From positions 1 through 48,474 of IMG/VR virus record IMGVR_UViG_3300011443_000019: a stretch of 48,474 bases of DNA; one strand, written 5' to 3'. Under the pieces are notes generated by a model. It worked only from the letters and a program-made list of their open reading frames with translations, was not told the origin of the DNA and made no database searches. Positions within the stretch are counted from its first letter, which is position 1, and every line of letters starts with the position of its first letter. The DNA comes from a virus (Duplodnaviria; Caudoviricetes). A program made the translations under genes and the position numbers. This document shows positions 2,354 through 42,258 of the stretch, in pieces.

Positions 2354-2473
2354 ATGAAACAGATTACGTGTCCGCGCTGCCGGTATGAGTGGATTCCTCG
2401 CGTCCAGAATCCCAAAGCCTGTCCGGCCTGTAAGACACGCCTGGCTATGCCTAGGAAGAAAAGAAAGGCGTGA
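2354..2473 (+). CDS. 39-aa Zn-ribbon microprotein (absent from ORF track)
   Basis: MKQITCPRCRYEWIPRVQNPKACPACKTRLAMPRKKRKA; two CxxC pairs; GTGA overlap with next gene. Confidence 0.75.
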   Translation: MKQITCPRCRYEWIPRVQNPKACPACKTRLAMPRKKRKA

Positions 2474-3318
2474 TTGAGATGGCTACACTTCGAGCGCGCG
2501 CGGATGGTCTACCGCCGAACATTCTGGACCTGGACGTTGAGAAGCCGTATACCGGCCAAGTGAGCATTAGCCACGAGGCTGCTGCGCTGTTGTTGCCGGA
2601 ATATAACAAGGGTAACCGGCGGGTGCGCAAGGCTCTCGTGAATTATCTATTGCGCCAGATCCAGAACGGCGAATGGCAATCCGATCATCCGCAGCCGATC
2701 GTGTTCTCGGCGGACGGACGACTAATTGACGGGCAGCATCGCTTGTTCGCGATAGCAGAGAGTGGGCGCACCGTGCTAGCAATGGTTGTGACTGGTGTCA
2801 GAGATGCACTCAGGGAGTACATCGACACAGGTATCAGCCGTCAATTAGAAGATCGCGTGGAGTTTTCATCCGATCCCGGCCAGAACCAACGATTAGCACA
2901 ACTAGTGAATCAGTTCGCATCCCTACAGACCGGGCGTCCGCGCGGAACAAGCAAGCCGACGCCAAGCGAAGCACTAGATATATTTACTGCAAACAAAGAG
3001 GGTTTCATGTTCTCCGCCCATTACATGGGGAGGCGGATAGCTGGTCTATGCGCTGCTCCTGTTATGGTTGCTCTGGCGGAATACCATAGCCGAGATCGCG
3101 ATCGTGCCACGGCGTTCTGTGAATCATTGCTAGCAACCGACGGCGACATACAGCCGGCGCGAAGGCTGAGAGAGCATCTCATTCGCCGATCTGCCCAAGG
3201 CGCAACGGCTGGAGGTCAAGCGCGCCTGGACATCTACCTAAAGAGTGTCGGTGCCATGCGCGCGCACATGGAAGGCCGAATCATTTCCAGTCTCCGCAGT
3301 TCAACGTGGGCTGGATAA
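2470..3318 (+). CDS. ParB/Srx-like (DGQHR motif) protein
   Basis: NRRVRK...GEW...IVFS..GRLIDGQHRLFAI motif; lower GC than flanks. Confidence 0.7.
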   Translation: MIEMATLRARADGLPPNILDLDVEKPYTGQVSISHEAAALLLPEYNKGNRRVRKALVNYLLRQIQNGEWQSDHPQPIVFSADGRLIDGQHRLFAIAESGRTVLAMVVTGVRDALREYIDTGISRQLEDRVEFSSDPGQNQRLAQLVNQFASLQTGRPRGTSKPTPSEALDIFTANKEGFMFSAHYMGRRIAGLCAAPVMVALAEYHSRDRDRATAFCESLLATDGDIQPARRLREHLIRRSAQGATAGGQARLDIYLKSVGAMRAHMEGRIISSLRSSTWAG

Positions 3319-3509
3319 CAACCGTTCGCTGTCCGTGGCATGAGGAGAATACGCCTTCCTGCCAACTTCATAGCGTAAGGCGTGTCGTGTATTGCTTCGG
3401 CTGTGGACGACACGCCACTCCTGATGAACTGATCTCTGCCCTGAAGTCGGTTGGCCGAGTTGATGATGCCAACCGAGTCGAAACGGCTATTTCCCTACTA
3501 ATCAAATAG
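3306..3509 (+). CDS. Stand-alone CHC2 (primase-type) zinc finger protein
   Basis: CPWHEENTPSC...VYCFGCG matches the DnaG Zn-binding domain pattern. Confidence 0.7.
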   Translation: MGWITTVRCPWHEENTPSCQLHSVRRVVYCFGCGRHATPDELISALKSVGRVDDANRVETAISLLIK

Positions 3510-3545
3510 TCCTCCCTCTCTACGGCCGCAGCATGGTACCGCTCC

Positions 3546-5504
3546 ATGTTGAACAGCCGGGCCTATTCGACCCTCGACCACGTCAAAACGGTCGATGAGG
3601 ATCAACGAATCATCGAAGGTATTGCGAGCACGCCCGAGGTTGATAGGGCTGGCGATGTCGTCGTGCCTGAGGGTGCGACGTTCAATCTGCCCATGCCGCT
3701 GCTCTGGCAGCATCAAGCCGATCAACCAATCGGGAGCATTCTCAGTGCGACCGTCGGCAAGTCCGGCATCAAGATTCGTGCGCAGATCGCCAAGGACATA
3801 GGCCTCCCTGAAATTGAAAGAGCTTGGCGACTCATAAAGTCCGGCCTTGTGCGTGGGTTCAGTATCGGGTTCAAGGCCTTGGAAATGGAACCGCTGAACG
3901 CGAAGGATCCGTGGGGCGGTCAGAAGTTTACGAAGTGGCTGTGGTTGGAAACCTCTGCGGTCACGATTCCCGCGAATGGATCGGCCTCAATCTCGCTCAT
4001 CAAACAACTCGACACCCAACAGCGCGCCGCGACAGGCACCGCTGGACGTGTTCACTCGTCATCTTCGCCTACTGCCGTGGGCTCCAAGTCGAAAAAGGAG
4101 TCGCCAATGGCGACAGCATCAGAACAATTGACGTCGGCATTGGCCGAGCTCCGGACGAAGTCCGAACGACTCACGCAACTGAATGACCTCGAAGGCGCCG
4201 ACGGCAGTCTCGAGGACGCACAGGAGCAGGAAGCGACCCAGTTGGCCGGGCAGGTCAAGGCCTTGTCCGGAAAGATCGACCGGCTCAAGGCGATGGAAAT
4301 GGCCCTGGCCGCGCAAGCGCGCCCGGCCCTCGTCAAGCAGGCCACGGGCGATGTCCGCGACGTGCACACCCAGCACATCGAAATGGGCAAGGCACCGGAA
4401 CAGCAGTTGCCGCCCGGGATCGAACTGGCGAAGTATCTGATCTGCCGCGCGGCGGCGCTCCGCATGGGCGTCTCAGCGCTGGACCTGGCGAAGCATTACT
4501 ACCCCGGCCTGACGCGCATTCAGACGATGCTGAAGGAAGTCGTGCCGGCGGGCAGCACGCTCGACTCGACGTGGGCGGGCCCGCTCGTCTACCCGACGAA
4601 CCTCGTGAGCGAGTTCATCGAGTTCCTGCGACCGCAGACCATCATCGGCCGCATCGACGGCATGACGCGCGTCTCGTTCAATTCTCGCATCGGCGGGGAG
4701 ACGTCGGGCGGGGCGGGCTACTGGGTCGGGCAGGGCAAGGCGAAGCCGCTCACTAAGGGCGACTACAACGAGACGACCATCCCGTTCACGAAGGTCGCGA
4801 ACATCGCGGTCCTGACGGATGAGTTGGTGCGGTTCTCGAGTCCCTCGGCCGAAGCGCGGGTCCGCAGCTTGCTCGTGCGGGCGCTCCAGGAACGGCTCGA
4901 CATCGACTTCATCGATCCCGCGAAGACGGCCTCGGCGGGCGTCTCCCCGGCCTCGATTACCAACGGCATCGCGAACCTCAACGCCTCAGGCGTGACGCTC
5001 GACGCGGTCGACGTGGACGTGCAAGCCCTGATGAACTCCTTCATCACGGCGCACATCATGCCGACACACTGGATCATGCCGAACTCGGTCGCGCTGGCGC
5101 TCTCGCTCATGCGGACGTCGCTCGGGGCGTATGCCTTCCCGACGATCAACATGAACGGCGGCACGTTCTACGGGCTTCCCGTCGTGACGTCGCAGTATGC
5201 GATTCTCGGCACGCCCGCGAACAACCTCATCGTGCTCCTGTCGGCGCCGGAAATCTTCCTGGCGGACGATGGCGGGTTCTCGATGGAGATGAGCCGCGAG
5301 GCCTCGCTCGAGATGGACGACGCGCCGACGATGGATGCCGGGTCACTGGGCTCACCGGCCGGTGCCACGGGCTCGACGGTCGTCTCGATGTTCCAGACGA
5401 ACAGCGTGGCACTCCGCTGCGAGCGCTACATCTACTGGACGCGTCGGCGGAATGCTGGCGTGGCCTGGATGGATGACGTGCAGTGGGCCGCCGGCACGTC
5501 GTAG
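3546..5504 (+). CDS. Fused HK97-type prohead protease and major capsid protein
   Basis: N-terminal protease motifs (EGIAST..DRAGD, LLWQH, GFSIGF, ETSAVTIPAN), coiled-coil delta domain, HK97-fold capsid C-terminus (SMFQTNSVALRCER). Confidence 0.93.
   Translation: MLNSRAYSTLDHVKTVDEDQRIIEGIASTPEVDRAGDVVVPEGATFNLPMPLLWQHQADQPIGSILSATVGKSGIKIRAQIAKDIGLPEIERAWRLIKSGLVRGFSIGFKALEMEPLNAKDPWGGQKFTKWLWLETSAVTIPANGSASISLIKQLDTQQRAATGTAGRVHSSSSPTAVGSKSKKESPMATASEQLTSALAELRTKSERLTQLNDLEGADGSLEDAQEQEATQLAGQVKALSGKIDRLKAMEMALAAQARPALVKQATGDVRDVHTQHIEMGKAPEQQLPPGIELAKYLICRAAALRMGVSALDLAKHYYPGLTRIQTMLKEVVPAGSTLDSTWAGPLVYPTNLVSEFIEFLRPQTIIGRIDGMTRVSFNSRIGGETSGGAGYWVGQGKAKPLTKGDYNETTIPFTKVANIAVLTDELVRFSSPSAEARVRSLLVRALQERLDIDFIDPAKTASAGVSPASITNGIANLNASGVTLDAVDVDVQALMNSFITAHIMPTHWIMPNSVALALSLMRTSLGAYAFPTINMNGGTFYGLPVVTSQYAILGTPANNLIVLLSAPEIFLADDGGFSMEMSREASLEMDDAPTMDAGSLGSPAGATGSTVVSMFQTNSVALRCERYIYWTRRRNAGVAWMDDVQWAAGTS
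4095..4109 (+). promoter_or_regulatory. Internal RBS and in-frame start for a capsid-only product
   Basis: AAGGAG (4095-4100) followed 6 nt later by in-frame ATG (4107, codon 188) at the protease/delta-domain boundary. Confidence 0.65.
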
Positions 5505-5876: not shown

Positions 5877-7264
5877 ACTTATTCGGCCTGACGATCTCCC
5901 GAACCAAGGCAGCCGTGAGTGCGATGACGCCTGCGAACAGTGCCGGGCTCATGTCGGCCGGTGCTGGTTCGAACGGCTGGTATCCGATCGTCCGTGAAGG
6001 ATTCGCGAAGGCCTGGCAGTGCAACGTCGAGACGCCCCTCTGTGACGTCCTGAGTCATCCGACCGTCTTCGCGTGCATCACGCTGATCGCGGGTGACATT
6101 GCGAAGATGCGCCTCCAGTTGGTGCGCGAGGAAGAGAACGACGTCTGGGCGCCAACCGACAGCGGAGCCTTTTCGCCCGTGCTGCGTGAACCGAACCACT
6201 ACCAGGCGCCGTTTCAGTTTTTCGAGCAGTGGATGCTGTCGAAGCTCATCCATGGCAACACGTTTGTCCTGAAGCGTCGAGATAATCGCGGCGTGGTTGA
6301 TGCGCTCTATGTGCTCGATCCGACACGCGTGCGTCCGTTGATTGCTCGTGATGGAAGCGTGTTCTATGAACTAAACACGAACGACTTGGCGCCGATCAGC
6401 GAAGGCGTCGTCGTGCCGGCGCGGGAGATGATCCACGATCGGTTCAACTGCTTTTATCACCCCCTGGTCGGGATCTCGCCGCTCTATGCCTGCGGGATCG
6501 CGGCCATGCTCGGGATGAAGATCCAGACGAACTCGGCGCACTTCTTTGGCAACGGGTCACAACCTGGGGGCATCCTGACGGCACCTGGGGCCATCAGTGA
6601 ACCGACGGCCGCTCGACTCAAAGAAAACTGGGAAAAGAACTTCGGCGGGCAGAACCGCGGGCGCGTGGCGGTGGTTGGCGACGGCCTGAAATACGAAGCG
6701 ATGGCCGAGTCGGCGGACAAGTCCCAACTGAATGAGCAGTGGGATTCCGCCTCCCAGGCGATCGCCGTGGCGTTTCATGTGCCGTGGTATCTCGTCGGCG
6801 GCCCGATGCCGCCCTATAACAACATCCAGGCGCTCAACGTCCAGTATTACACCCAGTGCTTGCAGCCGTTGACGACGGCGCTCGAGCAGGTCATGGATAC
6901 CGGCCTCGGTCTGAGTCCGGACAAGATCAATGGCGTGCGTCTCGGGACGCAGTTCAACATTAATGACCTCCTGTGGATGGACTCGGCGACGATGATGGCC
7001 GTTATCGCGCAGGGCATCGGGGCCGGGGTGCTGTCGCCGAATGACGGCCGAGCCAGGATCAACCTCGGGCCGGTCAAGGGTGGGGATACGCCCTACCTGC
7101 AGCAGCAGAACTTTAGCCTTGAGGATCTCGCCGAGCGGTCGAAGAATCCGATCCTCACGCCTCAACCGGCGCCACCTGCGGCGGAGTCCGACGACATGCC
7201 GGACGACATGAGCGAAGCGGCCTTCCTGGTGAGCCTACGGAAAGAACTGGAGCTGCACGCGTGA
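5873..7264 (+). CDS. Portal protein (HK97 family)
   Basis: VFACITLIAGDIAK, LIHGNTF, GISPL, FGNGSQPGGIL, LSPNDGRARINLGPVKGGD motifs. Confidence 0.96.
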   Translation: MNLFGLTISRTKAAVSAMTPANSAGLMSAGAGSNGWYPIVREGFAKAWQCNVETPLCDVLSHPTVFACITLIAGDIAKMRLQLVREEENDVWAPTDSGAFSPVLREPNHYQAPFQFFEQWMLSKLIHGNTFVLKRRDNRGVVDALYVLDPTRVRPLIARDGSVFYELNTNDLAPISEGVVVPAREMIHDRFNCFYHPLVGISPLYACGIAAMLGMKIQTNSAHFFGNGSQPGGILTAPGAISEPTAARLKENWEKNFGGQNRGRVAVVGDGLKYEAMAESADKSQLNEQWDSASQAIAVAFHVPWYLVGGPMPPYNNIQALNVQYYTQCLQPLTTALEQVMDTGLGLSPDKINGVRLGTQFNINDLLWMDSATMMAVIAQGIGAGVLSPNDGRARINLGPVKGGDTPYLQQQNFSLEDLAERSKNPILTPQPAPPAAESDDMPDDMSEAAFLVSLRKELELHA

Positions 7265-8241
7265 AGCCTTCCGATCTGGCGATGATCACGCGCGTGATGG
7301 GGCCGGTAGTGCGGGAGTTCACGGCCAAGGCGGTTGCGGAAGCGGTCGCGGTTGAGCGCGAGCGTCACGCGGCACTCGAACTGCGGATCCTGGAACTCGA
7401 AACGCGTCCGGCGCCTCTCGCTGGCAAAGATGGCCTGAACGGGGAGAAGGGCGATCCGGGCGAGAAGGGCCTTGACGGGAAGGACGGTCTACCAGGGAAG
7501 GATGGCCGCGACGGGATCGACGGCAAGGACGGCGTTCCTGGCGTGGATGGGAAAGATGGCGCACCGGGTATGCACGGCAAGGACGGAGCACCTGGGACTG
7601 ACGGGAAAGATGGCGCTCCAGGGCTGAACGGGAAAGACGGAGCCGATGGCCTCGACGGCAAGGACGGGGCGCCCGGGCTGAACGGCAAAGATGGATCCGA
7701 CGGACTTCACGGCAAAGACGGAGCGGCCGGCCGTGACGGGAAGGACGGGGCTCCTGGAGATCGCGGGTTCCAAGGCGAGAAGGGCCTTGATGGTGCGCCC
7801 GGTGATGCTGGCCGTGATGGTCGCGATGGACTCCCTGGCGCGTCAGGAAAGCCGGGAGAAAAAGGGCTCGACGGACGCGACGGCGTGGATGGGCTCGGCT
7901 TCGATGACATCCAGGTGGCGCACGACGGCGAACGGTCCTTCGACATCAAGTTCGTGCGAGGGGATCGGGTGAAGTCGTGCGGCACGTTCACAATCCCCGC
8001 GCAGATCGATCGCGGCGTCTATCAGGCGGGCAAGACCTACGAGCGCGGCGACGGGGCCACGTGGGACGGACACTTCTGGATCGCCCAGACGAAGACGCAC
8101 GAGCCGCCGGGGGAAGGCTCATCCGCGTGGCGCTTGGCGGTTCGACGTGGTAAGCAAGGCCGCGAAGGGAAGAAGGGCGATCCCGGAGCGGATGGCCGCG
8201 ACCTCACGCAGATGGATCCGCAAACGGGGCGGAAATGGTAA
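7261..8241 (+). CDS. Collagen-like head-associated protein
   Basis: 53 uninterrupted Gly-X-Y triplets; C-terminal GVYQAGKTYERGDGATWDGHFWIA...WRLAVRRG domain. Confidence 0.85.
   Translation: MKPSDLAMITRVMGPVVREFTAKAVAEAVAVERERHAALELRILELETRPAPLAGKDGLNGEKGDPGEKGLDGKDGLPGKDGRDGIDGKDGVPGVDGKDGAPGMHGKDGAPGTDGKDGAPGLNGKDGADGLDGKDGAPGLNGKDGSDGLHGKDGAAGRDGKDGAPGDRGFQGEKGLDGAPGDAGRDGRDGLPGASGKPGEKGLDGRDGVDGLGFDDIQVAHDGERSFDIKFVRGDRVKSCGTFTIPAQIDRGVYQAGKTYERGDGATWDGHFWIAQTKTHEPPGEGSSAWRLAVRRGKQGREGKKGDPGADGRDLTQMDPQTGRKW
7423..7899 (+). repeat. Gly-X-Y collagen repeat with GKD-GAP-GLN-like periodicity
   Basis: 53 triplets counted directly from the translation. Confidence 0.95.
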
Positions 8242-8897
8242 AGCGCGCGATGACGTTCGCCTCAGTGCCCCGGCTCTTGCCTGATGGCGGGACGGTGCTC
8301 GTGATGGGCTCGGGCCCGTCACTCACTCAGTCCGACGTGGACCTCGCGCGGGCGCATGTCTCGGCCGTGATCGCAGTGAACGATAGCTACAAGTTGGCGC
8401 CAGACGCGGACGTGCTCTATGCGGCGGACGCCCGCTGGTGGGGCTGGCACAAAGGCGCGGTGGCCCACGTCACGGGCGGCGGGGTGAAGTATCCCGAGTT
8501 CACCGGCCGGTATAAGTATGCCCTCGCCGCCGTCCCCGGCTACCCCGACGTGCAGGTGCTGCGCCGTGGACCGCAGACCGGCCTGACGTTGGACCCTGGG
8601 CGCGTGGCGCTTGGGCTCAACGGGGCGTATCAGTCGATCAACGTCGCGGTGCATCTCGGGGCCTCGCGGGTGCTCTTGCTCGGCGTGGACATGCAAGGCG
8701 GGCACTTCTTCGGGCGGCACCCGAACAACAGCGGCCCACCGTTTTCCATGTGCCTGCAACGGTTCGCGACACTGGTCGATCCACTCAAGACGGCCGGGGT
8801 CGACGTGGTGAACTGCACGCCCAAGAGTGCGCTCAAGGCGTTTCCGCTGATGGATCTGAGCGAGGCGTTTCCGATGGCGCAGGCGGTGGCGTCGTGA
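8235..8897 (+). CDS. Maf/DUF115 (MptE-like) fold putative glycosyltransferase
   Basis: VLVMGSGPSL, VIAVND, DVLYAAD, NGAYQSINVAVHLGASRVLLLGVD motifs. Confidence 0.7.
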   Translation: MVKRAMTFASVPRLLPDGGTVLVMGSGPSLTQSDVDLARAHVSAVIAVNDSYKLAPDADVLYAADARWWGWHKGAVAHVTGGGVKYPEFTGRYKYALAAVPGYPDVQVLRRGPQTGLTLDPGRVALGLNGAYQSINVAVHLGASRVLLLGVDMQGGHFFGRHPNNSGPPFSMCLQRFATLVDPLKTAGVDVVNCTPKSALKAFPLMDLSEAFPMAQAVAS

Positions 8898-9589
8898 AGA
8901 TCCCACTGTCGACCACGTTTGATCCATCGCAGGTCGATCGCGTGCGCGATCTGCTCGACGGTCGCGCGTGTGTCGTCGTCGGGTCCGCGCCGTTGAAGGG
9001 TCCGCCGGACCTGTCCGAGACAGACGTGGTCATTGCGGTCAACGGCGGGATCTCCAGCGTGCCGCGGGCGGTCGATCTCTGGGTCGTCGCCAGCCGGCCA
9101 CAGGACAAGCCGGGGAGCGGGCAGATCAAGCCCTTGCACAAGACGATGCTCCACCAATTGCACAAGACGATGCTCCACCAAGCCAAGGGGCGCACAGCTG
9201 GACACGTCCTGTTTCTGCGTGGGCCAAAGCACGCGAGCGAGGGCGACACGTTGGCGATGCTCGACGTGTTGGGCTGTCGGTATGCCTCGTGGTCCGTGCT
9301 CGACAAGCCGACGAAGCAGGGCCTCGAGAACGATCTCTGCGCGCGGCCGGGGAGCAAGGATCCGTGCTCGTCGGGGATTCTCGCGACGGCGATTGCGGTC
9401 TATTGCGGCGCGGCGTCCGTGCGGCTGGTCGGGTTCTCGCTCAGTCCGGGCTACCACTACTTGCCGAAGGAACGGCCACAGTCGTGGTGGCGGAACCACG
9501 TCGCAGCGGATCGGCGGGCGCTCAAGGCGCTCCGGGCGCGCTATGGGGCGACGTTGTCGGGGTCGATCCTGGAGGCGGTCGGGGCGTGA
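8894..9589 (+). CDS. GT29 sialyltransferase-like protein
   Basis: GTG start overlapping upstream stop; CVVVGSAP..DVVIAVN (sialylmotif L-like), CSSGILATAIA..VRLVGFS (S-like), YHY, terminal HxxxxD. Confidence 0.65.
   Translation: MKIPLSTTFDPSQVDRVRDLLDGRACVVVGSAPLKGPPDLSETDVVIAVNGGISSVPRAVDLWVVASRPQDKPGSGQIKPLHKTMLHQLHKTMLHQAKGRTAGHVLFLRGPKHASEGDTLAMLDVLGCRYASWSVLDKPTKQGLENDLCARPGSKDPCSSGILATAIAVYCGAASVRLVGFSLSPGYHYLPKERPQSWWRNHVAADRRALKALRARYGATLSGSILEAVGA
9134..9181 (+). repeat. Perfect 24-bp in-frame tandem duplication (LHKTMLHQ x2)
   Basis: TTGCACAAGACGATGCTCCACCAA at 9134-9157 and 9158-9181. Confidence 0.97.
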
Positions 9590-10212
9590 AAACCGTCATC
9601 TTCCTCGGCAAGCGGACGGCGCCCGGGTCGCCACGCGAGCGGTGGCCGGAGGCGGAACTCTGGGGCACGACCAACAGCAACGTGAAGTATGCGCAGAAGC
9701 GCGACAAGGAACGTCGCGTCATCGGGACGGTCGACGACTGGACGGCCTGGTGGGAACTCCACCCGTTCGGGCCGGTGCCCGGCTATGAGGGCGTCAAGCG
9801 CAAGCGTCCGGCGGCGTATCGCTGGTATCAGACCTTGCCCGGGCCGAATCAGCCTGGCTACCGGCCGCTGTGGTTGGCCGAACTCGATCCGACGATCCCG
9901 GCCGGCGTGTTGTTTCCGAAGGCGCGCGTGCTCGACGCCTTCAAGATTCCCGGCGAGGGCCACGGGTGGTTTACCTGCCAGGTCGATCTAATGATGGCCT
10001 ACGCGATCCTGGAGGGTTACGAGCACATCATCCTGCACGGGCACGGGGTGAGCCGCGAACTCAAGCACATGATCGACCACGTCGGGATCGTCTACTGGAT
10101 CGCTCTGGCACGCGAGCGCGGGATCAAGGTGACGGTCGTTGCGCCCTCGTGGTATCTCGCGCCGAAGAACCCCTACGGGGTCTCGGCCGGGGACTGGGGG
10201 CTGCGACGGTGA
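9586..10212 (+). CDS. Putative glycosyltransferase, divergent GT29/Maf-like fold
   Basis: GTG start; TVIFLG...ELWGTTN...FTCQVDLMMAYAILEGYEHIILHG parallels the motif order of the two upstream genes. Confidence 0.5.
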   Translation: MKTVIFLGKRTAPGSPRERWPEAELWGTTNSNVKYAQKRDKERRVIGTVDDWTAWWELHPFGPVPGYEGVKRKRPAAYRWYQTLPGPNQPGYRPLWLAELDPTIPAGVLFPKARVLDAFKIPGEGHGWFTCQVDLMMAYAILEGYEHIILHGHGVSRELKHMIDHVGIVYWIALARERGIKVTVVAPSWYLAPKNPYGVSAGDWGLRR

Positions 10213-10889
10213 AGCACAAGATCGGCTCGGCGGCGCACCTGGCGCATCGCTTTCTTGATCGCGGGGATGCCGTACTCGACATCGGCGCGGCCGACGGTGC
10301 CTATACGCGCGTCTACGCGGATCGCGTCGGACGCACGGGGTCCGTGCTCGCTGTGGAGCCGAATGTGCGACATCTCGGGCAACTGCTCGACGCCTGCGAG
10401 CCGATGCCGTGGGTATCGATCTGGTATGGAGCGGTGGGTCGCGATCGGCTCGGGCTAGGGTGGCTGCACGAAGACGCCGACGATCCGAAGCGGAGTTCGC
10501 TGTGGGCGTCGAATGTCTCACGACCCGGGCACGGCTACCACGTCGCGGTCACGACGGTGGATGCCCTGATCGAGACAATGCCGCAGCAGCCAAAGTTGAT
10601 TCAAGTCGACGCCCAAGGGGCCGAGGCCGACATCGTTGCGGGGGCGGGGAAGGCTTTAACGGCGCCGATCGTGTGGGTGCTCGAGATCTGGCGGGAGGGC
10701 CTCGCGAATGCCGGCGCCACCGTCGATGACGTGCTCCTGCCATTCGAGGTGCACGGCTACACGGCGCGGTCGATTGCGGGCGCGCGGATCGAGTGGGACG
10801 ACCTTCGGGAACAAGTCAGGCCACATCTCGGCGTGACACATGCGGATGTCGTGTTGGTGCCGGATGCGCTGAAGGGGGCGGACTGGTGA
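10209..10889 (+). CDS. FkbM-family SAM methyltransferase
   Basis: VLDIGAADG, VLAVEPN, TVDAL, LIQVDAQGAE motifs. Confidence 0.85.
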   Translation: MKHKIGSAAHLAHRFLDRGDAVLDIGAADGAYTRVYADRVGRTGSVLAVEPNVRHLGQLLDACEPMPWVSIWYGAVGRDRLGLGWLHEDADDPKRSSLWASNVSRPGHGYHVAVTTVDALIETMPQQPKLIQVDAQGAEADIVAGAGKALTAPIVWVLEIWREGLANAGATVDDVLLPFEVHGYTARSIAGARIEWDDLREQVRPHLGVTHADVVLVPDALKGADW

Positions 10890-11503
10890 ATCGGAAATGG
10901 TTCGCCCAGTCCGGTGAGGATCGCACGATCGCGCGGATCTTCCGGGAGATCGGCGTGCTGAATCGGTTCGCGGTGGAGTTCGGCGCCGCCGATGGCCGGC
11001 GGAAGTCGAACACGGCCTACTTCCGGGATCGCGGCTGGTCCTCGCGGCTCTTCGATGTCGACCCGCTCGACCCCGAAGTGCAACACGCGGACATCACCGC
11101 GGAGAACGTCAACGACATCTTCCGCGCCGCGGGCGTGCCGCAGACGTTTGACTTGCTCTCGATCGACATCGACGGCAACGACTTGTGGGTGTGGAAGGCC
11201 TTGACGTTCCGGCCGCGGGTGGTCGTCATCGAATACAACCCGAAGTGGTCGGCGTCGAAGTCGCGGACGGTGCCCTATGACCCGCGCCGTCGATGGGACG
11301 GCACAAACTTCTATGGAGCCAGTGCGTTAGCCCTTCGAAGGGTCGGGATCGAGAAGGGTTACGACTTGGTCGCCGCGACCCGGTCAAATCTGATCTTCGT
11401 GACGAAGGGCCTCCTGCCGGCGATCTCGGCATCGGAGGTGCGCCGGCCGGTCAAGATGAAGCGGAAGGATCCCGAGAAGCGGGCCTGGGAGATCTACGCA
11501 TGA
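10886..11503 (+). CDS. FkbM-like SAM methyltransferase
   Basis: AQSGED, VEFGAADG..SNT, DLLSIDIDGND, PRVVVIEYN motifs. Confidence 0.85.
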   Translation: MNRKWFAQSGEDRTIARIFREIGVLNRFAVEFGAADGRRKSNTAYFRDRGWSSRLFDVDPLDPEVQHADITAENVNDIFRAAGVPQTFDLLSIDIDGNDLWVWKALTFRPRVVVIEYNPKWSASKSRTVPYDPRRRWDGTNFYGASALALRRVGIEKGYDLVAATRSNLIFVTKGLLPAISASEVRRPVKMKRKDPEKRAWEIYA

Positions 11504-12507
11504 TCCAGGGGGATCCGCCCATTGTGCGCGACACGCGGGATCGGCTCAAGGCGTTGGGCGCGGGTCGGGGTCCGATCATCGTGGGGCCGTGGCTGTCTGA
11601 GATTGGCTTCGAACTTCTCTACTGGATTCCGTTCCTCCGGTGGGCCTGTGCCTTCGCCAAGCTGCGCCGCGACGACCTGTGGATCGTCTCGCGGGGCGGC
11701 TGTCGCTCGTGGTATGCGGACATCGGCGCGCACTATGTCGACGTGTTCGACTTCTACACGCCTGAGCAGTTCCGCGCGGGGAATGCGCGACGGATCGCGG
11801 AACAGGCCCACCGGGCGCTGTCCTTGGGACTCCGGGAGGGGTTGACGTCGACCAAGCAACACACGCTGACGGCGTTCGACCGGGACATCCTCGGGCGCGT
11901 CAATCTGCCGAATGCGCGTGTCTTGCATCCGTCGACGATGTATGGCGTGTTCCGATCGTTCTGGCGGCGGCAAACCCCGTCACTCTACGACCAGATCACG
12001 GCACCTACCCGCTTGCGCACGGCGACCCGCGCCGAGGGCCTGCCGGCCGCCTACGTCGCCGCGAAGTTCTATGCCTCGGCCGCCTGCTCGCAATCTCCGC
12101 TCCATGCGCAGATGGTGAACGCCATCGTGCGTGCGACGGTCAAAACGACCGACGTCGTGCTCCTGCACACGGGGACGAAGTTCGACGAGCATGGGGAGTT
12201 CGCGATCGAGCCGCACCCGCGCGTGCATCGCGTGGCGATGGATCCGGCGACGAACCTCGAGACGCAGACGGCGGTCCTCGCGGGCGCGTCGGGGTTCGTG
12301 GGCACGTATGGCGGGTTCGCGTATCTCGCGCCGTTCCTCGGCGTGCCGACCCGGACGTTCTATGCGCAGGCGAATTTCAGGAAGGATCACCGCCGCGTGA
12401 TCGATCAGGTCTGCGCGACGAAGCTCCGGACCAAGTTCAGCGTCGAACTGATCGATGGCGGCCTCGCGCAGAAGGCCCAACGGCGGCGGGTGCGGTATGC
12501 GGCCTAA
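11500..12507 (+). CDS. Putative GT-B type glycosyltransferase
   Basis: ATG at 11500; GPWLSEIGFELLYWIPFLR N-terminus and GT9-like C-terminus (QTAVLAGASGFVGTYGGFAYLAPFLGVP). Confidence 0.55.
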   Translation: MIQGDPPIVRDTRDRLKALGAGRGPIIVGPWLSEIGFELLYWIPFLRWACAFAKLRRDDLWIVSRGGCRSWYADIGAHYVDVFDFYTPEQFRAGNARRIAEQAHRALSLGLREGLTSTKQHTLTAFDRDILGRVNLPNARVLHPSTMYGVFRSFWRRQTPSLYDQITAPTRLRTATRAEGLPAAYVAAKFYASAACSQSPLHAQMVNAIVRATVKTTDVVLLHTGTKFDEHGEFAIEPHPRVHRVAMDPATNLETQTAVLAGASGFVGTYGGFAYLAPFLGVPTRTFYAQANFRKDHRRVIDQVCATKLRTKFSVELIDGGLAQKAQRRRVRYAA

Positions 12508-13072
12508 TCTCTACGCGCCTGGGTCGCCGTATCACCAGAACCGTCGCTGGACGCATCCGCACTCGCTCCGGTGCCTGCAGGCGGCGATCGCGGTCCTGGG
12601 CAAGCCGGACAGCCTGATCGATGTCGGCTGTGCGGAAGGGGTGCATGTGGCGTGGGCAAAGGCGAACGGAATCGAGGCGATGGGGATCGATCTCGCCGTG
12701 CCGGAAGGGGATCCCGCACTGGTCCGCGCCGATCTCTGTCGCCCGATCGATGTGGGCGCGCGGTTCGACTGGGTGCTGTGTTGGGAAGTCGCGGAACATC
12801 TGCCCGCCGAGGCGGCCGTGACGCTCGTCGACACGCTCGTGCGGCACATGCGGCCGACGGGGCGGATCCTGTTCACGGCGGCCGGGCCGGGGCAACGGGG
12901 ACCGGGGCATGTGCATTGCGCGGAGCCGTGGTTCTGGCAAGACCTCTTCCGGTCGCACGGGTTGACGTTCGCGGAGGCGTTGACGGCGACCCTGCGGAAG
13001 CGATGGGCGACGTGCTCTCCGCTCACGCCGTGGTATGCGAAAAATGCGATGTTGTTCTGGAGGCAAGCGTGA
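12497..13072 (+). CDS. Class I SAM methyltransferase
   Basis: LIDVGCAEG, GIDL, FDWVLCWEVAEHL, ILFTAAGPGQRGPGHV motifs. Confidence 0.88.
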   Translation: MRPNLYAPGSPYHQNRRWTHPHSLRCLQAAIAVLGKPDSLIDVGCAEGVHVAWAKANGIEAMGIDLAVPEGDPALVRADLCRPIDVGARFDWVLCWEVAEHLPAEAAVTLVDTLVRHMRPTGRILFTAAGPGQRGPGHVHCAEPWFWQDLFRSHGLTFAEALTATLRKRWATCSPLTPWYAKNAMLFWRQA

Positions 13073-13782
13073 AGATTCTCTTCACGATGCGCACGGCTGA
13101 TAGGGCACCAAAGCCGAACTATCTGCGGGCGACGGTGGGGAGCCTCTATCACCACGGCGTGAGGGACATTCACGTCTTCCCGACCGATCCAGACATCACG
13201 TGGATGCGGCCTCATCCCTACGCGACGCTGCATCAACCGGACAAGCGGGTTCGGGCGAACGAGAACGGACTACGGCCGATCGCCTTGCTCGACACGATCG
13301 ACGCCGACTGGATCATCCTGAGCGAAGACGACCTGGAATGGTGCGCCGATCCGATCGGGAGTATGTCTCGATGGTTGGACGAGTTCAGCACGTCGGATGT
13401 CCTGATGTATCGGTTCTTCGCGTTCGACCAGTTGACGCAAGTGAGCGCCCACGCAGCGACGGCACCGCTCCGAGAGCAGAAGGGATCGCAAGCGGTCGCT
13501 CTCCGCGCGGACGATGCGCGCCGGTTCGCGGCCTGGGCTACGGCGCATCCGCTCGACTGGCGGCCCAAGGGAGCGCCGTTTCAGGACCGCCCGCACGACG
13601 GATTCGACAAGCTGCTCGGCTACTGGGCGCTCCAGGATCGGCCGGACGTGACGACCGGCCTCGTCTCGCGGCCGTTCTTCGTGCGACATATGGGCGTGCA
13701 CAGTAGCCTCCATATTCGCGGCCGAATGATGGATCGGCAGTTCACGGGCCGCGCGTATGAACCGGAGGCCGTATGGCGCTAG
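13069..13782 (+). CDS. Putative GT-A fold glycosyltransferase
   Basis: GTG start; RxxxPNYLRATV, WIILSEDD acidic motif, FDKLL, VRHMGVHSS. Confidence 0.65.
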   Translation: MKILFTMRTADRAPKPNYLRATVGSLYHHGVRDIHVFPTDPDITWMRPHPYATLHQPDKRVRANENGLRPIALLDTIDADWIILSEDDLEWCADPIGSMSRWLDEFSTSDVLMYRFFAFDQLTQVSAHAATAPLREQKGSQAVALRADDARRFAAWATAHPLDWRPKGAPFQDRPHDGFDKLLGYWALQDRPDVTTGLVSRPFFVRHMGVHSSLHIRGRMMDRQFTGRAYEPEAVWR

Positions 13783-36736: not shown

Positions 36737-37026
36737 TGGCCTATCTCAACAGTGCGACTTACGAACTCCCCTTTGCGAGCGGGAGCGACACGTCCGAAGC
36801 GGCGGCCAGGCGTGCGGAGCGGTTCGTCGGCCCGCAAGGCGTCACGGTCTGGACGTGGCTGCAGCAGCAGGGGCCGCGAGGCGGCACACAGCGCGAGGCG
36901 AGCACCGCCTTAGGCGTGGGACGGCCGAGTATCTGCGCCAGGTTTCATGCACTCGAGCAGCGGGGCGAGATTCGAAAGCTGGCCGGCACGACGCGGGCGC
37001 ATTGTGCGGTATACGTCGCGGTGTGA
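36736..37026 (+). CDS. Winged-helix DNA-binding protein
   Basis: SDTSEAAA...GGTQREASTALG...SICARFHALEQRGEI. Confidence 0.78.
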   Translation: MAYLNSATYELPFASGSDTSEAAARRAERFVGPQGVTVWTWLQQQGPRGGTQREASTALGVGRPSICARFHALEQRGEIRKLAGTTRAHCAVYVAV

Positions 37027-37027
37027 G

Positions 37028-37073
37028 TCGCTATATCTAGTGGCTTGTAATGACCCGCAGGACCGGATATAAA
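37028..37073 (+). promoter_or_regulatory. NrdR-box-like site followed by a sigma70 promoter
   Basis: tcgCTATATCTAGTgg (37028-37043) resembles the NrdR consensus acaCwAtATaTwGtg; TTGTAA(37045)-N17-TATAAA(37068). Confidence 0.6.
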
Positions 37074-37076
37074 AAC

Positions 37077-37412
37077 GGGGCGCTTTCCAGCTTATCACTG
37101 GGCGGCGCCCCTAATGACCCCGAGCTGAGTGAGGCAGCGCGGCGGACTTCCCGCCATTCTACCAAACAGCCATCGTGCGTCAAGGGGATCGCTGAAGGTG
37201 TAGCGATTCACAAAGTAGGCACCTCGAGACAGGCGACACGCACGTTGCGCCGCGCTGATTGGCCGACTCTGAGCCACCAATCGAGTCACCGAAATCCAGG
37301 GCAGGGCCGCCGACACCTTCCCGCCTGGTCCCTCATACCCTTGGTAGGTATGAGTGAGCCGTTTTCCTTTGGCTTGGATACAAGCGTATGAGGGAAAAAA
37401 GGTGTCGGAGGT
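37077..37412 (+). ncRNA. Putative structured ncRNA or leader of unknown family
   Basis: Three perfect 10-bp long-range helices and several hairpins directly downstream of a promoter, in the largest gap between credible genes. Confidence 0.6.
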
Positions 37413-37423
37413 GTAACTGATCG

Positions 37424-37735
37424 GTGGAATTTCTCTGTGATGGCGGCGGCAGTTGGACCCTCGACGAGAAACGGTTGGGCATCTGGCGCGACCTGTATCC
37501 GGATCTCAATGTGGATCAGGAGTGCCGCAAGGCGTGGGCGTGGCTGGACGCCAATCCGATGAAGCGGAAGACGGCGCGCGGGATGCCGCGGTTCCTCGTG
37601 GCGTGGCTGAATCGGGCGCAACCGGCGCCGCCTGAGACAAGAGCGGATCGGTATGGACATTATCCGCGCTGTCGGACTATGCAGGAATGCACGCTGAAGG
37701 CGCTGGCCGAGGCGCGAGCGAAGAGGACGACATGA
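37424..37735 (+). CDS. Replication-protein C-terminal-domain-like protein
   Basis: W.DLYPDLNVDQECRKA.AWLDANP.KRKTARGMPRFL.AWLNRAQ resembles the C-terminal domain of lambdoid replication initiators. Confidence 0.65.
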   Translation: MEFLCDGGGSWTLDEKRLGIWRDLYPDLNVDQECRKAWAWLDANPMKRKTARGMPRFLVAWLNRAQPAPPETRADRYGHYPRCRTMQECTLKALAEARAKRTT

Positions 37736-38171
37736 GTGATAAGGGCGTGTTGTCGGTCTGTGCGACGTGTAGACATGCCGAGTGGAAGAAGACGGCGAAC
37801 GGTCGCCGGCATCCTGACGGCTCTGGCCGGTGCGGGTATGAGTTCCCTAATTCACCGTTGCCGAAGTGGGCACGGGATCGGTCGTATGGGCGCGATGAAG
37901 TGTCGCTGCGCGAAGTGCTTGAGCGTAAGATGACCCGGCGCTGGATTTACTGGGTGGACATTCATCGCGATGAGCCTGAACCGTGCGCGACATGGGAAGC
38001 CAAGCCATGAAGCGGAAGACGGCCAGGGGGATGCCGCGGTTCCTCGTGGCGTGGCTGAATCGGGCGCAACCTTCGCCACCTGAGACGAGAGCGGATCGGT
38101 ATGGACATTATCCGCGCTGTCGGACCATGCAGGAATGCACGCTGAAGGCGTTGGCTGAGGCGAGGGCGAAA
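37559..38171 (+). repeat. 165-bp imperfect direct repeat (37559-37723 and 38007-38171)
   Basis: 13 nucleotide differences by manual alignment, one amino-acid change. Confidence 0.95.
37732..38010 (+). CDS. Cys-containing hypothetical protein
   Basis: ATGA overlaps; CATCRHA...GRC...C. Confidence 0.65.
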   Translation: MSDKGVLSVCATCRHAEWKKTANGRRHPDGSGRCGYEFPNSPLPKWARDRSYGRDEVSLREVLERKMTRRWIYWVDIHRDEPEPCATWEAKP

Positions 38172-40680: not shown

Positions 40681-42258
40681 GTGCCGCCTAAACCTCCCAT
40701 AGCGAAACTGAGCGCCCCGTCACAAGTGCGCCAGGGGGTCCCGTTTGAAGTAGATGCCTCGGCCTCGACAGATGGCCCTGGCGGCGGCGGGATCACCGGG
40801 TACGATTTCGAATTCGACGACGGCACCACGGAACACACAGACCAACCGCAGGCCACGCACACCTACCACCAGGCCGACGGGCCATACTCCGTCACGGTCA
40901 CGGTCACAAACAAGAAAGGCCGCAGTAGCAAGTCAGATCCGGCCATCATCGAGGTCATCGCGGAGCAGCCACCCGTGCCGGTGGATTGTGTGTTGTCGGA
41001 CTGGTCCGAATGGTCTGAGTGGGTCGATAACGGCGACGGCACCGAAACTCGGAGCCGGATCCGGACGATTGTGGTTGAACCGGCGAACGGGGGGCAGCCC
41101 TGCGAGCATCAGGAAGAAACCGAACGGCGGTACATCGCTCTGCCGGTTGATTGTGTGCTTGGGCCGGAGTTCATCACAGCCGAGACACCGCTCGAAGCCT
41201 GCCAGCCTGACGGATTTCAAGCCGTGGAAGTGGCCTGGAGCAAGACGATCCTCACGCCTCCGGCGAACGGCGGGCAGGCCTGTGGAGCGACCAGTGGGAC
41301 ACGGATCGAGAAGAGGGCGTGTGTGTATGTGCCGGCGACGGATGATCATGCGCGATTCGACACCTTGCGGGCGTTGCCGCAATGCCTCGTGTCGGAGTCG
41401 CTACGGGTGCAGTCAGAGATCGACGCGCTGACGGGTGCCGGGGTATCGACGGCCTATGTCGCCAAACAGGATGAGGCGGAACTGATCATCCCACCCGACC
41501 GGGCTAGCCTCGCCGGGAATCAGCAGCTCATCATTCCGATTCGGCAGACGACCGGACCCCTGCTCCTGACGTGGGATGTCTGGTACGGCCATGAGTGGCG
41601 CAAGGTGGAGCACGGCGGCTCCTACGACTACGCCTTTGACAAGTCCTACCAGCACAAAGAGTTTCAGTGCGGGTTCGACACGGATGGCGGCGGAGGGAAG
41701 GGCACCATCTTCTTTGAGACGCAGACGATGTATCAGCGCGGGACGGCCGATCACGTCGGCGCGGTGGGGCATCGACTGTATGGGGTCAAAGCGCCTGGGA
41801 CCACGATCGAAGCCGGAGAACCCAACGCTCACGGCTCTCCGTATGGCCCTGGTACCGAGCCCGATGGCGTGGCGATGATCCAGCACTCCACGTATTGCCG
41901 GCACGTGCTGGAGATCCGTCCCAACCAGCCCGCCAGCGCCTTCCCAGAGTGGGAAGCTCTCACAGGCGTCACGCTGCCACCGGACGAGGTCTACCACATG
42001 TATTCCTCGTGGTTCCTGACACCGACGCAGACGTATCGGCTGCTGTTCAGGATACCGGCGGGCCGCTACAAGGGTGCGACACCGGAGATCCTTAGAGACG
42101 GTCTATCGGCGTTCTGGTTCGAGCACAACACGAGCTCCAAGGTCGGAGTGATGACTGGTCCTGGCACGATTCGGTCGCGCGACTTTGTGTGCCTGAAGGG
42201 GTACGTGCTTCCGGACGTGCCAGAGGACGATGCGCTGATCTTCGAGAGGCCGTCGTAG
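40681..42258 (+). CDS. PKD plus two spondin-type TSP1-like repeats plus beta-rich C-terminal domain
   Basis: VDASASTD..FDDGT..HTY..YSVTVTV (PKD); PVDCVLSDWSEWSEW..RSRIRTIVVEPANGGQPC. Confidence 0.8.
   Translation: MPPKPPIAKLSAPSQVRQGVPFEVDASASTDGPGGGGITGYDFEFDDGTTEHTDQPQATHTYHQADGPYSVTVTVTNKKGRSSKSDPAIIEVIAEQPPVPVDCVLSDWSEWSEWVDNGDGTETRSRIRTIVVEPANGGQPCEHQEETERRYIALPVDCVLGPEFITAETPLEACQPDGFQAVEVAWSKTILTPPANGGQACGATSGTRIEKRACVYVPATDDHARFDTLRALPQCLVSESLRVQSEIDALTGAGVSTAYVAKQDEAELIIPPDRASLAGNQQLIIPIRQTTGPLLLTWDVWYGHEWRKVEHGGSYDYAFDKSYQHKEFQCGFDTDGGGGKGTIFFETQTMYQRGTADHVGAVGHRLYGVKAPGTTIEAGEPNAHGSPYGPGTEPDGVAMIQHSTYCRHVLEIRPNQPASAFPEWEALTGVTLPPDEVYHMYSSWFLTPTQTYRLLFRIPAGRYKGATPEILRDGLSAFWFEHNTSSKVGVMTGPGTIRSRDFVCLKGYVLPDVPEDDALIFERPS

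Follow-up and report, generated by a model that had tools for sequence, protein, structure and literature searches.

In lambdoid O-type replication modules, the N-terminus of the initiator locates the origin and the C-terminus contacts host or phage loading proteins, with initiator C-terminal domains (CTDs) binding single-stranded DNA or the helicase loader. Such a module comprises a tO-oop-pO layout, an O gene with iterons and an AT-rich tract, and a gene for a loader or helicase. RNA-primed origins are also known. In ColE1, RNA I is antisense to the 5′ end of RNA II and damps initiation, and to our knowledge the plasmid encodes no initiator protein. Initiation through R-loops has been described for both ColE1 and T4 (PMC5333043), and ColE1-like plasmids are reported to use restart proteins (PMC5778457). 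Pseudoknot- and antisense-containing rep leaders are likewise established: those of the I-complex plasmids (ColIb-P9, IncB/K, IncL/M) are described as combining an antisense RNA, a pseudoknot and a nearby ribosome site upstream of the replication gene (PMC10724649). Finally, the ARRPOF, GEBRO and PAGEV motifs, structured elements of 223–349 nt, have been tied to plasmid replication, and ARRPOF lies within a region that replicates without rep, according to the account in PMC5737381.

The locus compared with these systems here lies in a 48,474-bp tailed-phage record, the whole of which was analysed and is called the window; it is linear, 67% complete according to CheckV, and has no terminal repeat. 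Its genes run in the order terminase, HK97-type protease-capsid, portal and tail genes, followed by ERF, YqaJ, HNH and Dam, all of them on the + strand. Among the other genes of the window, a weakly ParB-like phrog_5931 gene (2470–3318) sits between terminase and capsid, collagen-repeat and FkbM methyltransferase-like genes (7261–13782) follow the portal gene, and the right arm encodes a protein with PKD and thrombospondin-like parts (40681–42258). The non-coding region of interest follows a 96-aa ORF whose end is at 37026 and precedes a 103-aa ORF (37424–37735). The product of the latter is homologous to the C-terminus of lambdoid initiators, but, compared with the lambdoid module, the window lacks the N-terminal DNA-binding domain and the iterons, has no recognised adjacent loader, and carries in the place of the N-terminus and iterons a pseudoknotted non-coding region of ~270 nt. 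Our verdict is that this region is a real feature, that it belongs to a new RNA family, and that it points to RNA-linked replication initiation of a new form, in which RNA instead of protein would likely mark the start of genome copying.

By homology, the gene at 37424–37735 (+ strand) encodes a stand-alone CTD of an O-like initiator, ending in a His/Cys motif. A sequence-only reading of the window had claimed that this gene resembles only the C-terminus of initiators and that iterons are absent, and both observations were borne out: the protein matches near-C-terminal residues of the phiRgIBDN1 replisome organizer and of many proteins of 240–400 aa, and no iteron array occurs at the locus. 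Sequence comparison establishes it as an initiator CTD without N-terminus or iterons. An in-frame stop lies just upstream of the gene, which has its own ribosome site, and a frameshifted full-length initiator was rejected since no upstream frame is conserved. The CTD family counts 10,790 representatives at E ≤0.001 and has no Pfam model; many of its top matches (30 examined) are themselves stand-alone proteins of 103–137 aa with their own start. The core of the domain is basic and conserved, while the His/Cys tail characterizes the window’s subfamily and occurs in full-length initiators as well. Among 50 full-length homologues scanned, ten had a recognised initiator-type N-terminus (DUF1376 in four, HTH_36 in two, DUF6291 in two, Lin1244_N in one and Phage_rep_org_N in one). 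The genes that follow full-length homologues encode IstB-like loaders, DnaB helicases or G39P in 14 of 40 cases and were not recognised as such in the other 26; no loader or helicase was recognised next to the CTD gene of the window. A separate arrangement is seen at 3001–3732 of locus L083, where the CTD forms the N-terminus of a fusion with a helicase-loader-like domain (phrog_2289) and a non-coding gap lies farther upstream.

The structure of the CTD was modelled confidently, with a pLDDT of 90.9, but could be assigned to no known fold. Foldseek and a PDB sequence search with the domain returned nothing, and the best hit in a fold comparison was VIA at Z 4.6. Like the CTD, the single-stranded DNA-binding domain of DnaT is small and helical, and an alignment of 63 residues spans that domain in full (6aep_A, Z 3.9, rmsd 4.0; 4ou6_A, Z 3.7). 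These weak scores are tied with those of many unrelated folds, and hhalign detected no profile similarity between the CTD and E. coli DnaT, which makes DnaT no more than a lead. Downstream, the 3′ part of the CTD gene is duplicated: 37559–37722 recur as a direct repeat at 38007–38170 (164 nt, 93% identical) around a 92-aa ORF (37732–38010, + strand) that has no Pfam or PHROG match, and the second copy contributes to a 56-aa product, P0002 (38007–38177, + strand). The repeat resembles the scar of a recent insertion or recombination event, and one contig of run X1, possibly the source sample, covers the insert together with both flanks.

The proposal that an RNA takes the place of the initiator N-terminus gained comparative support, as a long gap and the loss of N-terminus and iterons are strongly linked across many phages. 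The loci gathered comprised 32 stand-alone CTDs (duplicates included) and 73 long homologues. From these the gap test took 44 of the long loci and, besides the window, 20 non-redundant stand-alone ones, with one locus skipped for being too short; two broken full-length genes (L114, L121) look different and were excluded from the stand-alone set. In the first 1 kb upstream, 14/20 stand-alone versus 4/44 full-length loci had a gap of 250 nt or more, as counted with a crude codon-based gene caller that errs both ways and on related loci that are not independent. Repeat arrays were found inside six of six full-length genes, four of them with at least three iteron-like copies, and in none of six stand-alone loci. 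The upstream regions fall into family A (that of the window), family B (L034, L072), family C (L006, L082), an AT-rich family D (L069, L075, L081, L097, L103, L106, L112 and others) and further singletons. Sequence comparison establishes that, in these RNA families unrelated to one another, stand-alone CTDs are accompanied by long non-coding regions. One exception is L028, a stand-alone CTD whose longest gap is 82 nt in 1 kb, with none seen by eye in 2.2 kb. Repeated origin of the stand-alone form is suggested but not established by a quick tree (75 columns, 96 rows), which needs eight changes, yet whose well-supported branches force only one. Outside phages, an unannotated stand-alone CTD homologue lies directly after recT and ssb in Aeromonas plasmids (four records; L120, ~2947–3285), with ~50 nt upstream and no long gap; it may serve recombination-linked priming.

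Within family A, comparison with three relatives establishes 37075–37415 as conserved and non-coding. The relatives were reached via protein searches; against the window’s non-coding region, L005 is 85% identical over 234 nt, L037 is 82% identical and L036 is distant, and their downstream proteins share 48–56% identity with that of the window. The sequence-only reading had counted protein-level conservation of the 113-aa ORF at 37050–37391 as evidence against its own proposal. The frame is not kept: its start and open frame are absent in L005, L037 and L036, and 21 substitutions are split 9/7/5 over codon positions 1, 2 and 3, so that the ORF was rejected as a gene. Covariation, which the same reading had put forward as a check, was found chiefly in a pseudoknot that it had overlooked; its claim of a structured region stands, with pseudoknots now added. 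This element, PK1, is an H-type pseudoknot at 37189–37224 (+ strand), in which the loop (37196–37201) of the stem 37189–93/37202–06 pairs with 37219–24. PK1 is paired in 44/44 cells of the alignment, three of its six pseudoknot pairs differ on both sides, and three versions occur in the four sequences, with compensation across all four. In shuffled alignments its covariation score was reached in 6/500 and its number of covarying pairs in 37/500; it is the sole such helix in the alignment, and only 5/2000 column shuffles give any. The alignment thereby establishes that PK1 covaries, with support that is real but thin because PK1 was found by eye on these same sequences and two of the four family members are 93% identical. 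A second predicted pseudoknot, PK2 (37260–37287, + strand), has a stem 37260–63/37273–76 crossing 37265–69/37283–87; the latter differs in sequence yet pairs in the window, L005 and L037, and is unrecognisable in L036.

Searches for relatives by other routes were negative. The Rfam check proposed earlier was run and gave no match for the window; the Rfam 15 covariance models, run on the window and on two sets of related loci (20 and 4), found none apart from a tRNA and a sub-threshold small-RNA match. Three of four matches of one motif scan for additional family members were chance, no further member came from another motif scan or from a protein scan of the subfamily, and blastn of the region against phages and plasmids was blank. 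A hammerhead-like core, judged by eye, was discarded as not kept in the window.

Folding energies are modest and about equal on the two strands, with z of −2.2 to −2.9 for the + strand and −2.7 to −3.6 for the − strand, and the GC-corrected energy was lower than that of the RNA region in 5/71 genome windows; thermodynamics alone being unremarkable, the case rests on comparison. That both strands fold well would suit an element acting as single-stranded DNA instead of RNA, as a primosome assembly site of the pas or sso kind, and covariation alone cannot separate such motifs from RNA, a point made in PMC5737381. Single-sided changes to G-U indicate the + strand and so favour one strand, though single-stranded DNA of that strand would fit as well, and promoter-like sites recur upstream. 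On this evidence a DNA structure is very unlikely.

The predicted + strand promoter, of sigma70 type, spans 37045–37073 (TTGTAA-17-TATAAA; boxes 37045–50 and 37068–73; 9/12 to consensus). It is present as first described, and L005 and L037 carry TTGACT-17-AAAAAT at the same place; L006 and L036 have no clear promoter, sense or antisense. A consensus promoter scan, which found three sites against 3.9 expected, missed the window’s promoter because its last T is missing. The region is likely to be transcribed from here into an RNA of ~340 nt. All seven stems listed in the sequence-only reading are present as written, with unequal comparative support. The first, P1 (37077–37111), is real and is kept with different sequence in L005 and L037, but it is poorly placed as the beginning of the RNA: a transcript from the + promoter, with an expected start at ~37080, would begin inside it, and P1 is therefore more likely the terminator of an antisense RNA. 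Helix P2 (37135–44/37248–57, + strand) encloses the conserved core and is kept in L005 and L037; in L036, aligned by hand, 9/10 of its pairs are kept, mostly changed and largely compensatory. The stem 37188–93/37202–07 is kept in 4/4 sequences, while 37174–80/37238–44, which overlaps the minus-strand −35 box, is not conserved in the family alignment.

The 3′ domain (37296–37411, + strand) is predicted to form another crossed structure, in which 37296–300/37324–28 is crossed by 37307–19/37399–411. The latter helix, invariant in 3/3 sequences, would cover the Shine-Dalgarno sequence GGAGG at 37407–11; the shorter form listed earlier, 37310–19/37399–408, is likewise invariant in 3/3 and thus uninformative for covariation. 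Segment 37329–38 has two alternative partners, since the stem 37329–38/37386–95, where changes are solely to G-U, competes with a local hairpin at 37332–39/37347–54 that shows a compensatory change. In the stem 37372–76/37381–85, sequences of the L005 type have one compensatory and one broken pair. Two 3′ hairpins show compensation, and the 3′ tail is purine-rich, with a purine fraction of 0.70–0.76 in five hand-picked tails.

On the − strand, a promoter-like site, TTGACG-16-TG-TAGAAT, lies at 37156–37183 (10/12, extended −10), and P1 together with an A-run at 37071–75 (37071–37111 in all) reads as a predicted terminator, with a U-tract behind a GC hairpin. Promoter and terminator predict an antisense RNA of ~80 nt (37070–37149, − strand) that would cover the 5′ end of the + RNA in a layout like that of oop or RNA I. 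The oop RNA of lambda, a self-terminating antisense RNA of 77 nt in the tO-oop-pO layout (PMC3349717), is matched here in predicted length, position and layout. Of 14 hand-delimited stand-alone regions, 10 have a site scoring 8/12 or better at the corresponding position (5/8 among GC-rich regions); in random 130-nt windows from this genome the rate is 4.9%, a null not matched to AT-rich loci. A stricter automatic test for promoter plus terminator was positive in 4/20 stand-alone and 1/44 full-length loci. Elsewhere, an 80-nt antisense unit of three hairpins with a terminator end lies 5′ of another CTD-linked non-coding region (L052, 315–394, − strand) and has a sub-threshold match to Rfam anti-hemB.

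An antisense promoter and terminator in the tO-oop-pO position would also be expected of an operon leader that acts in cis, using the pseudoknot and the antisense RNA to govern translation or antitermination, with the origin elsewhere or replication primed by recombination. The Shine-Dalgarno sequence inside a predicted helix fits such translational control and counts against an RNA origin, the two alternative partners of 37329–38 fit it as well, and the window phage encodes the recombination proteins ERF and YqaJ. Moreover, control of rep by a pseudoknot and antisense RNA is known from the leaders described in PMC10724649, and the window would likewise group a predicted antisense RNA, a predicted pseudoknot and a ribosome site. 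The I-complex leaders, however, regulate a full Rep, whereas the window gene is a CTD fragment and its kind of RNA can be separated from it by other ORFs, as in L037 and family D. A leader would leave unexplained why N-terminus loss goes with long gaps (the 14/20 versus 4/44 above) and why the RNA is kept while the first downstream gene varies freely; in L037 the full 3′ pairing is kept although the next gene has its own ribosome site. We regard a leader function as unlikely, though it is to be reckoned with.

The reading we lean towards, with considerable reserve, is a cis-acting, RNA-based origin that works through an R-loop or primer and to which the CTD brings the host helicase. A phage that retains only the CTD needs another way to mark and open its origin, and it is exactly there that a predicted promoter and a likely structured RNA regularly stand, which favours an RNA origin. 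Transcription from 37045–73 would yield the ~340-nt RNA, whose purine-rich 3′ part could invade the template to form an R-loop, or whose 3′ end could be offered to a host polymerase. The CTD might then bind the displaced strand and the host helicase or primosome as an adaptor that helps load the helicase, and sequence-specific recognition of DNA by protein would not be needed if it did so. The ~80-nt antisense RNA could damp initiation, as RNA I does on ColE1 RNA II. The RNA would thus specify the origin, and a minimal protein domain would couple it to the host replisome. The layout resembles that of ColE1 in its predicted promoter-driven structured RNA and short 5′ antisense RNA, and differs from it in keeping an initiator fragment and in its shorter RNA; neither Rfam nor plasmid blastn connected the window with RNA II or RNA I.

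That near-complete relatives showed no alternative replication machinery also counts for an RNA origin. Among the ORFs scanned in the window, a linear record put at 67% completeness, there was no helicase, primase, polymerase or full initiator. In near-complete relatives, DnaB_C was found in 0/3 and 0/5, IstB in 0/3 and PolA in 0/5, and no primase or polymerase occurred in the 77 scanned of 111 long ORFs; no integrase was found in the five genomes considered (the window and four relatives). A large helicase-methylase fusion, encoded by the two genomes G001 and G002, could contribute to replication. The absence of IstB was rejected as a marker, being shared by 4/5 phages with full initiators.

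The full-text literature searched, a body that largely excludes subscription papers, yielded no account in which truncated phage initiators are paired with structured RNAs. The plasmid-borne ARRPOF, GEBRO and PAGEV are not linked to an initiator CTD in the consulted text of PMC5737381, whereas the window RNA is phage-borne and CTD-linked and has no Rfam match. These motifs may stand unnamed in catalogues such as PMC10690425 or the supplement of PMC5737381; the supplementary files of PMC10690425 that were searched, part of the set, held no match. Recognisable replication genes are absent from many environmental tailed phages, and an RNA origin, if real, would explain how replication starts in a sizeable group of them. 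It would also represent a natural hybrid of protein/iteron origins, such as that of lambda, and RNA-primed origins, such as those of ColE1 and T4, bring at least five new structured RNA families, and give a testable role to an initiator CTD family of ~10,800 representatives.

Family D provides a view of the linkage that does not start from the protein. A motif scan blind to protein found its RNA at 45 loci (23 distinct at 97%), and in 42/45 a stand-alone CTD follows on the same strand 476–1123 nt downstream; of the three misses, one locus offers a flank of only 154 nt, and the other two are genuine within the flank available. In an alignment of 29 sequences, 25 of 41 pairs covary, pseudoknot included, and 0/500 shuffles scored as high, the structure having been derived from the same alignment on which it was tested. 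The interval between RNA and CTD holds unrelated ORFs (phrog_5931, HNH, winged helix) in L037, L034, L106 and L113. The phrog_5931 gene of L037 (2107–2955), lying between RNA and CTD gene there, is apparently mobile.

Cultured Vibrio phages extend the pattern. NF, 1.275.O and 1.122.A/B share ~340 non-coding nt at 75% identity, and this region precedes two CTD types: the lambda-O type in NF, whose protein corresponds to only the C-terminal part of lambda-O-like families (positions 181–283 of 298 in phrog_391), and the window’s CTD family in 1.275.O and 1.122.A/B. In NF (L187) the shared non-coding region and the CTD-only initiator lie at 2800–3349 and 4038–4595, and in 1.275.O (L004) at 567–1170 and 2333–2740; the two CTDs have a similar leader of ~40 aa in front. 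NF and 1.275.O are the best experimental models, and such cultured phages render the question directly testable. It is conceivable, with chances somewhat short of even, that the iteron-binding half of O-like initiators has repeatedly given way to structured RNAs of several unrelated folds, in what would be a widespread, undescribed class of phage replication module that includes NF, 1.275.O and 1.122.A/B.

The pairing of RNAs and CTDs also bears on another possibility, a ribonucleoprotein initiator: bound to the CTD as its specificity subunit, the RNA would direct the protein to the origin or tether it there. The RNA occupies the place of the DNA-binding domain and is rich in pseudoknots, and the CTD offers a basic conserved core and, in the window’s subfamily, a His/Cys tail. 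However, full-length initiators have that tail too, the closely related CTDs of L006, L034 and L036 each accompany an RNA of another kind, and a single RNA region is shared by two CTD types. Little thus suggests that RNA and CTD have co-evolved, and such a complex is improbable. Exchangeable RNAs and two CTD types behind one Vibrio region fit a self-sufficient cis element and a protein that is not sequence-specific, in keeping with the RNA origin.

Several unrelated RNA families, the duplicated 3′ part of the CTD gene in the window, and the finding of a piece of the Vibrio region elsewhere could alternatively suggest an unrelated phage non-coding RNA, for example one that is mobile or acts in counter-defence, behind a strong early promoter and beside a degenerate initiator remnant. 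The piece in question is in Vibrio phage K67, where part of the region (a 41-nt match and a second motif) lies ~29 kb from a full-length, iteron-bearing initiator. Stand-alone CTDs are, however, intact, numerous and equipped with their own Met, and the linkage at 42 of 45 loci would be hard to reconcile with a bystander, which leaves this explanation only the slightest chance of all those weighed here. Two motifs of the NF and 1.275.O region also occur in an optional head-gene segment of Vibrio phage 1.119.O (L188, ~3001–3115) and of K66–K75; among phages with that segment, at least K67 has a full initiator. Finally, the Vibrio intergenic region has at its 5′ end a separate structured element of ~130 nt (L004, ~608–742) that is present in ten or more further Vibrio phage records, in some of which it is annotated as an odd tRNA.
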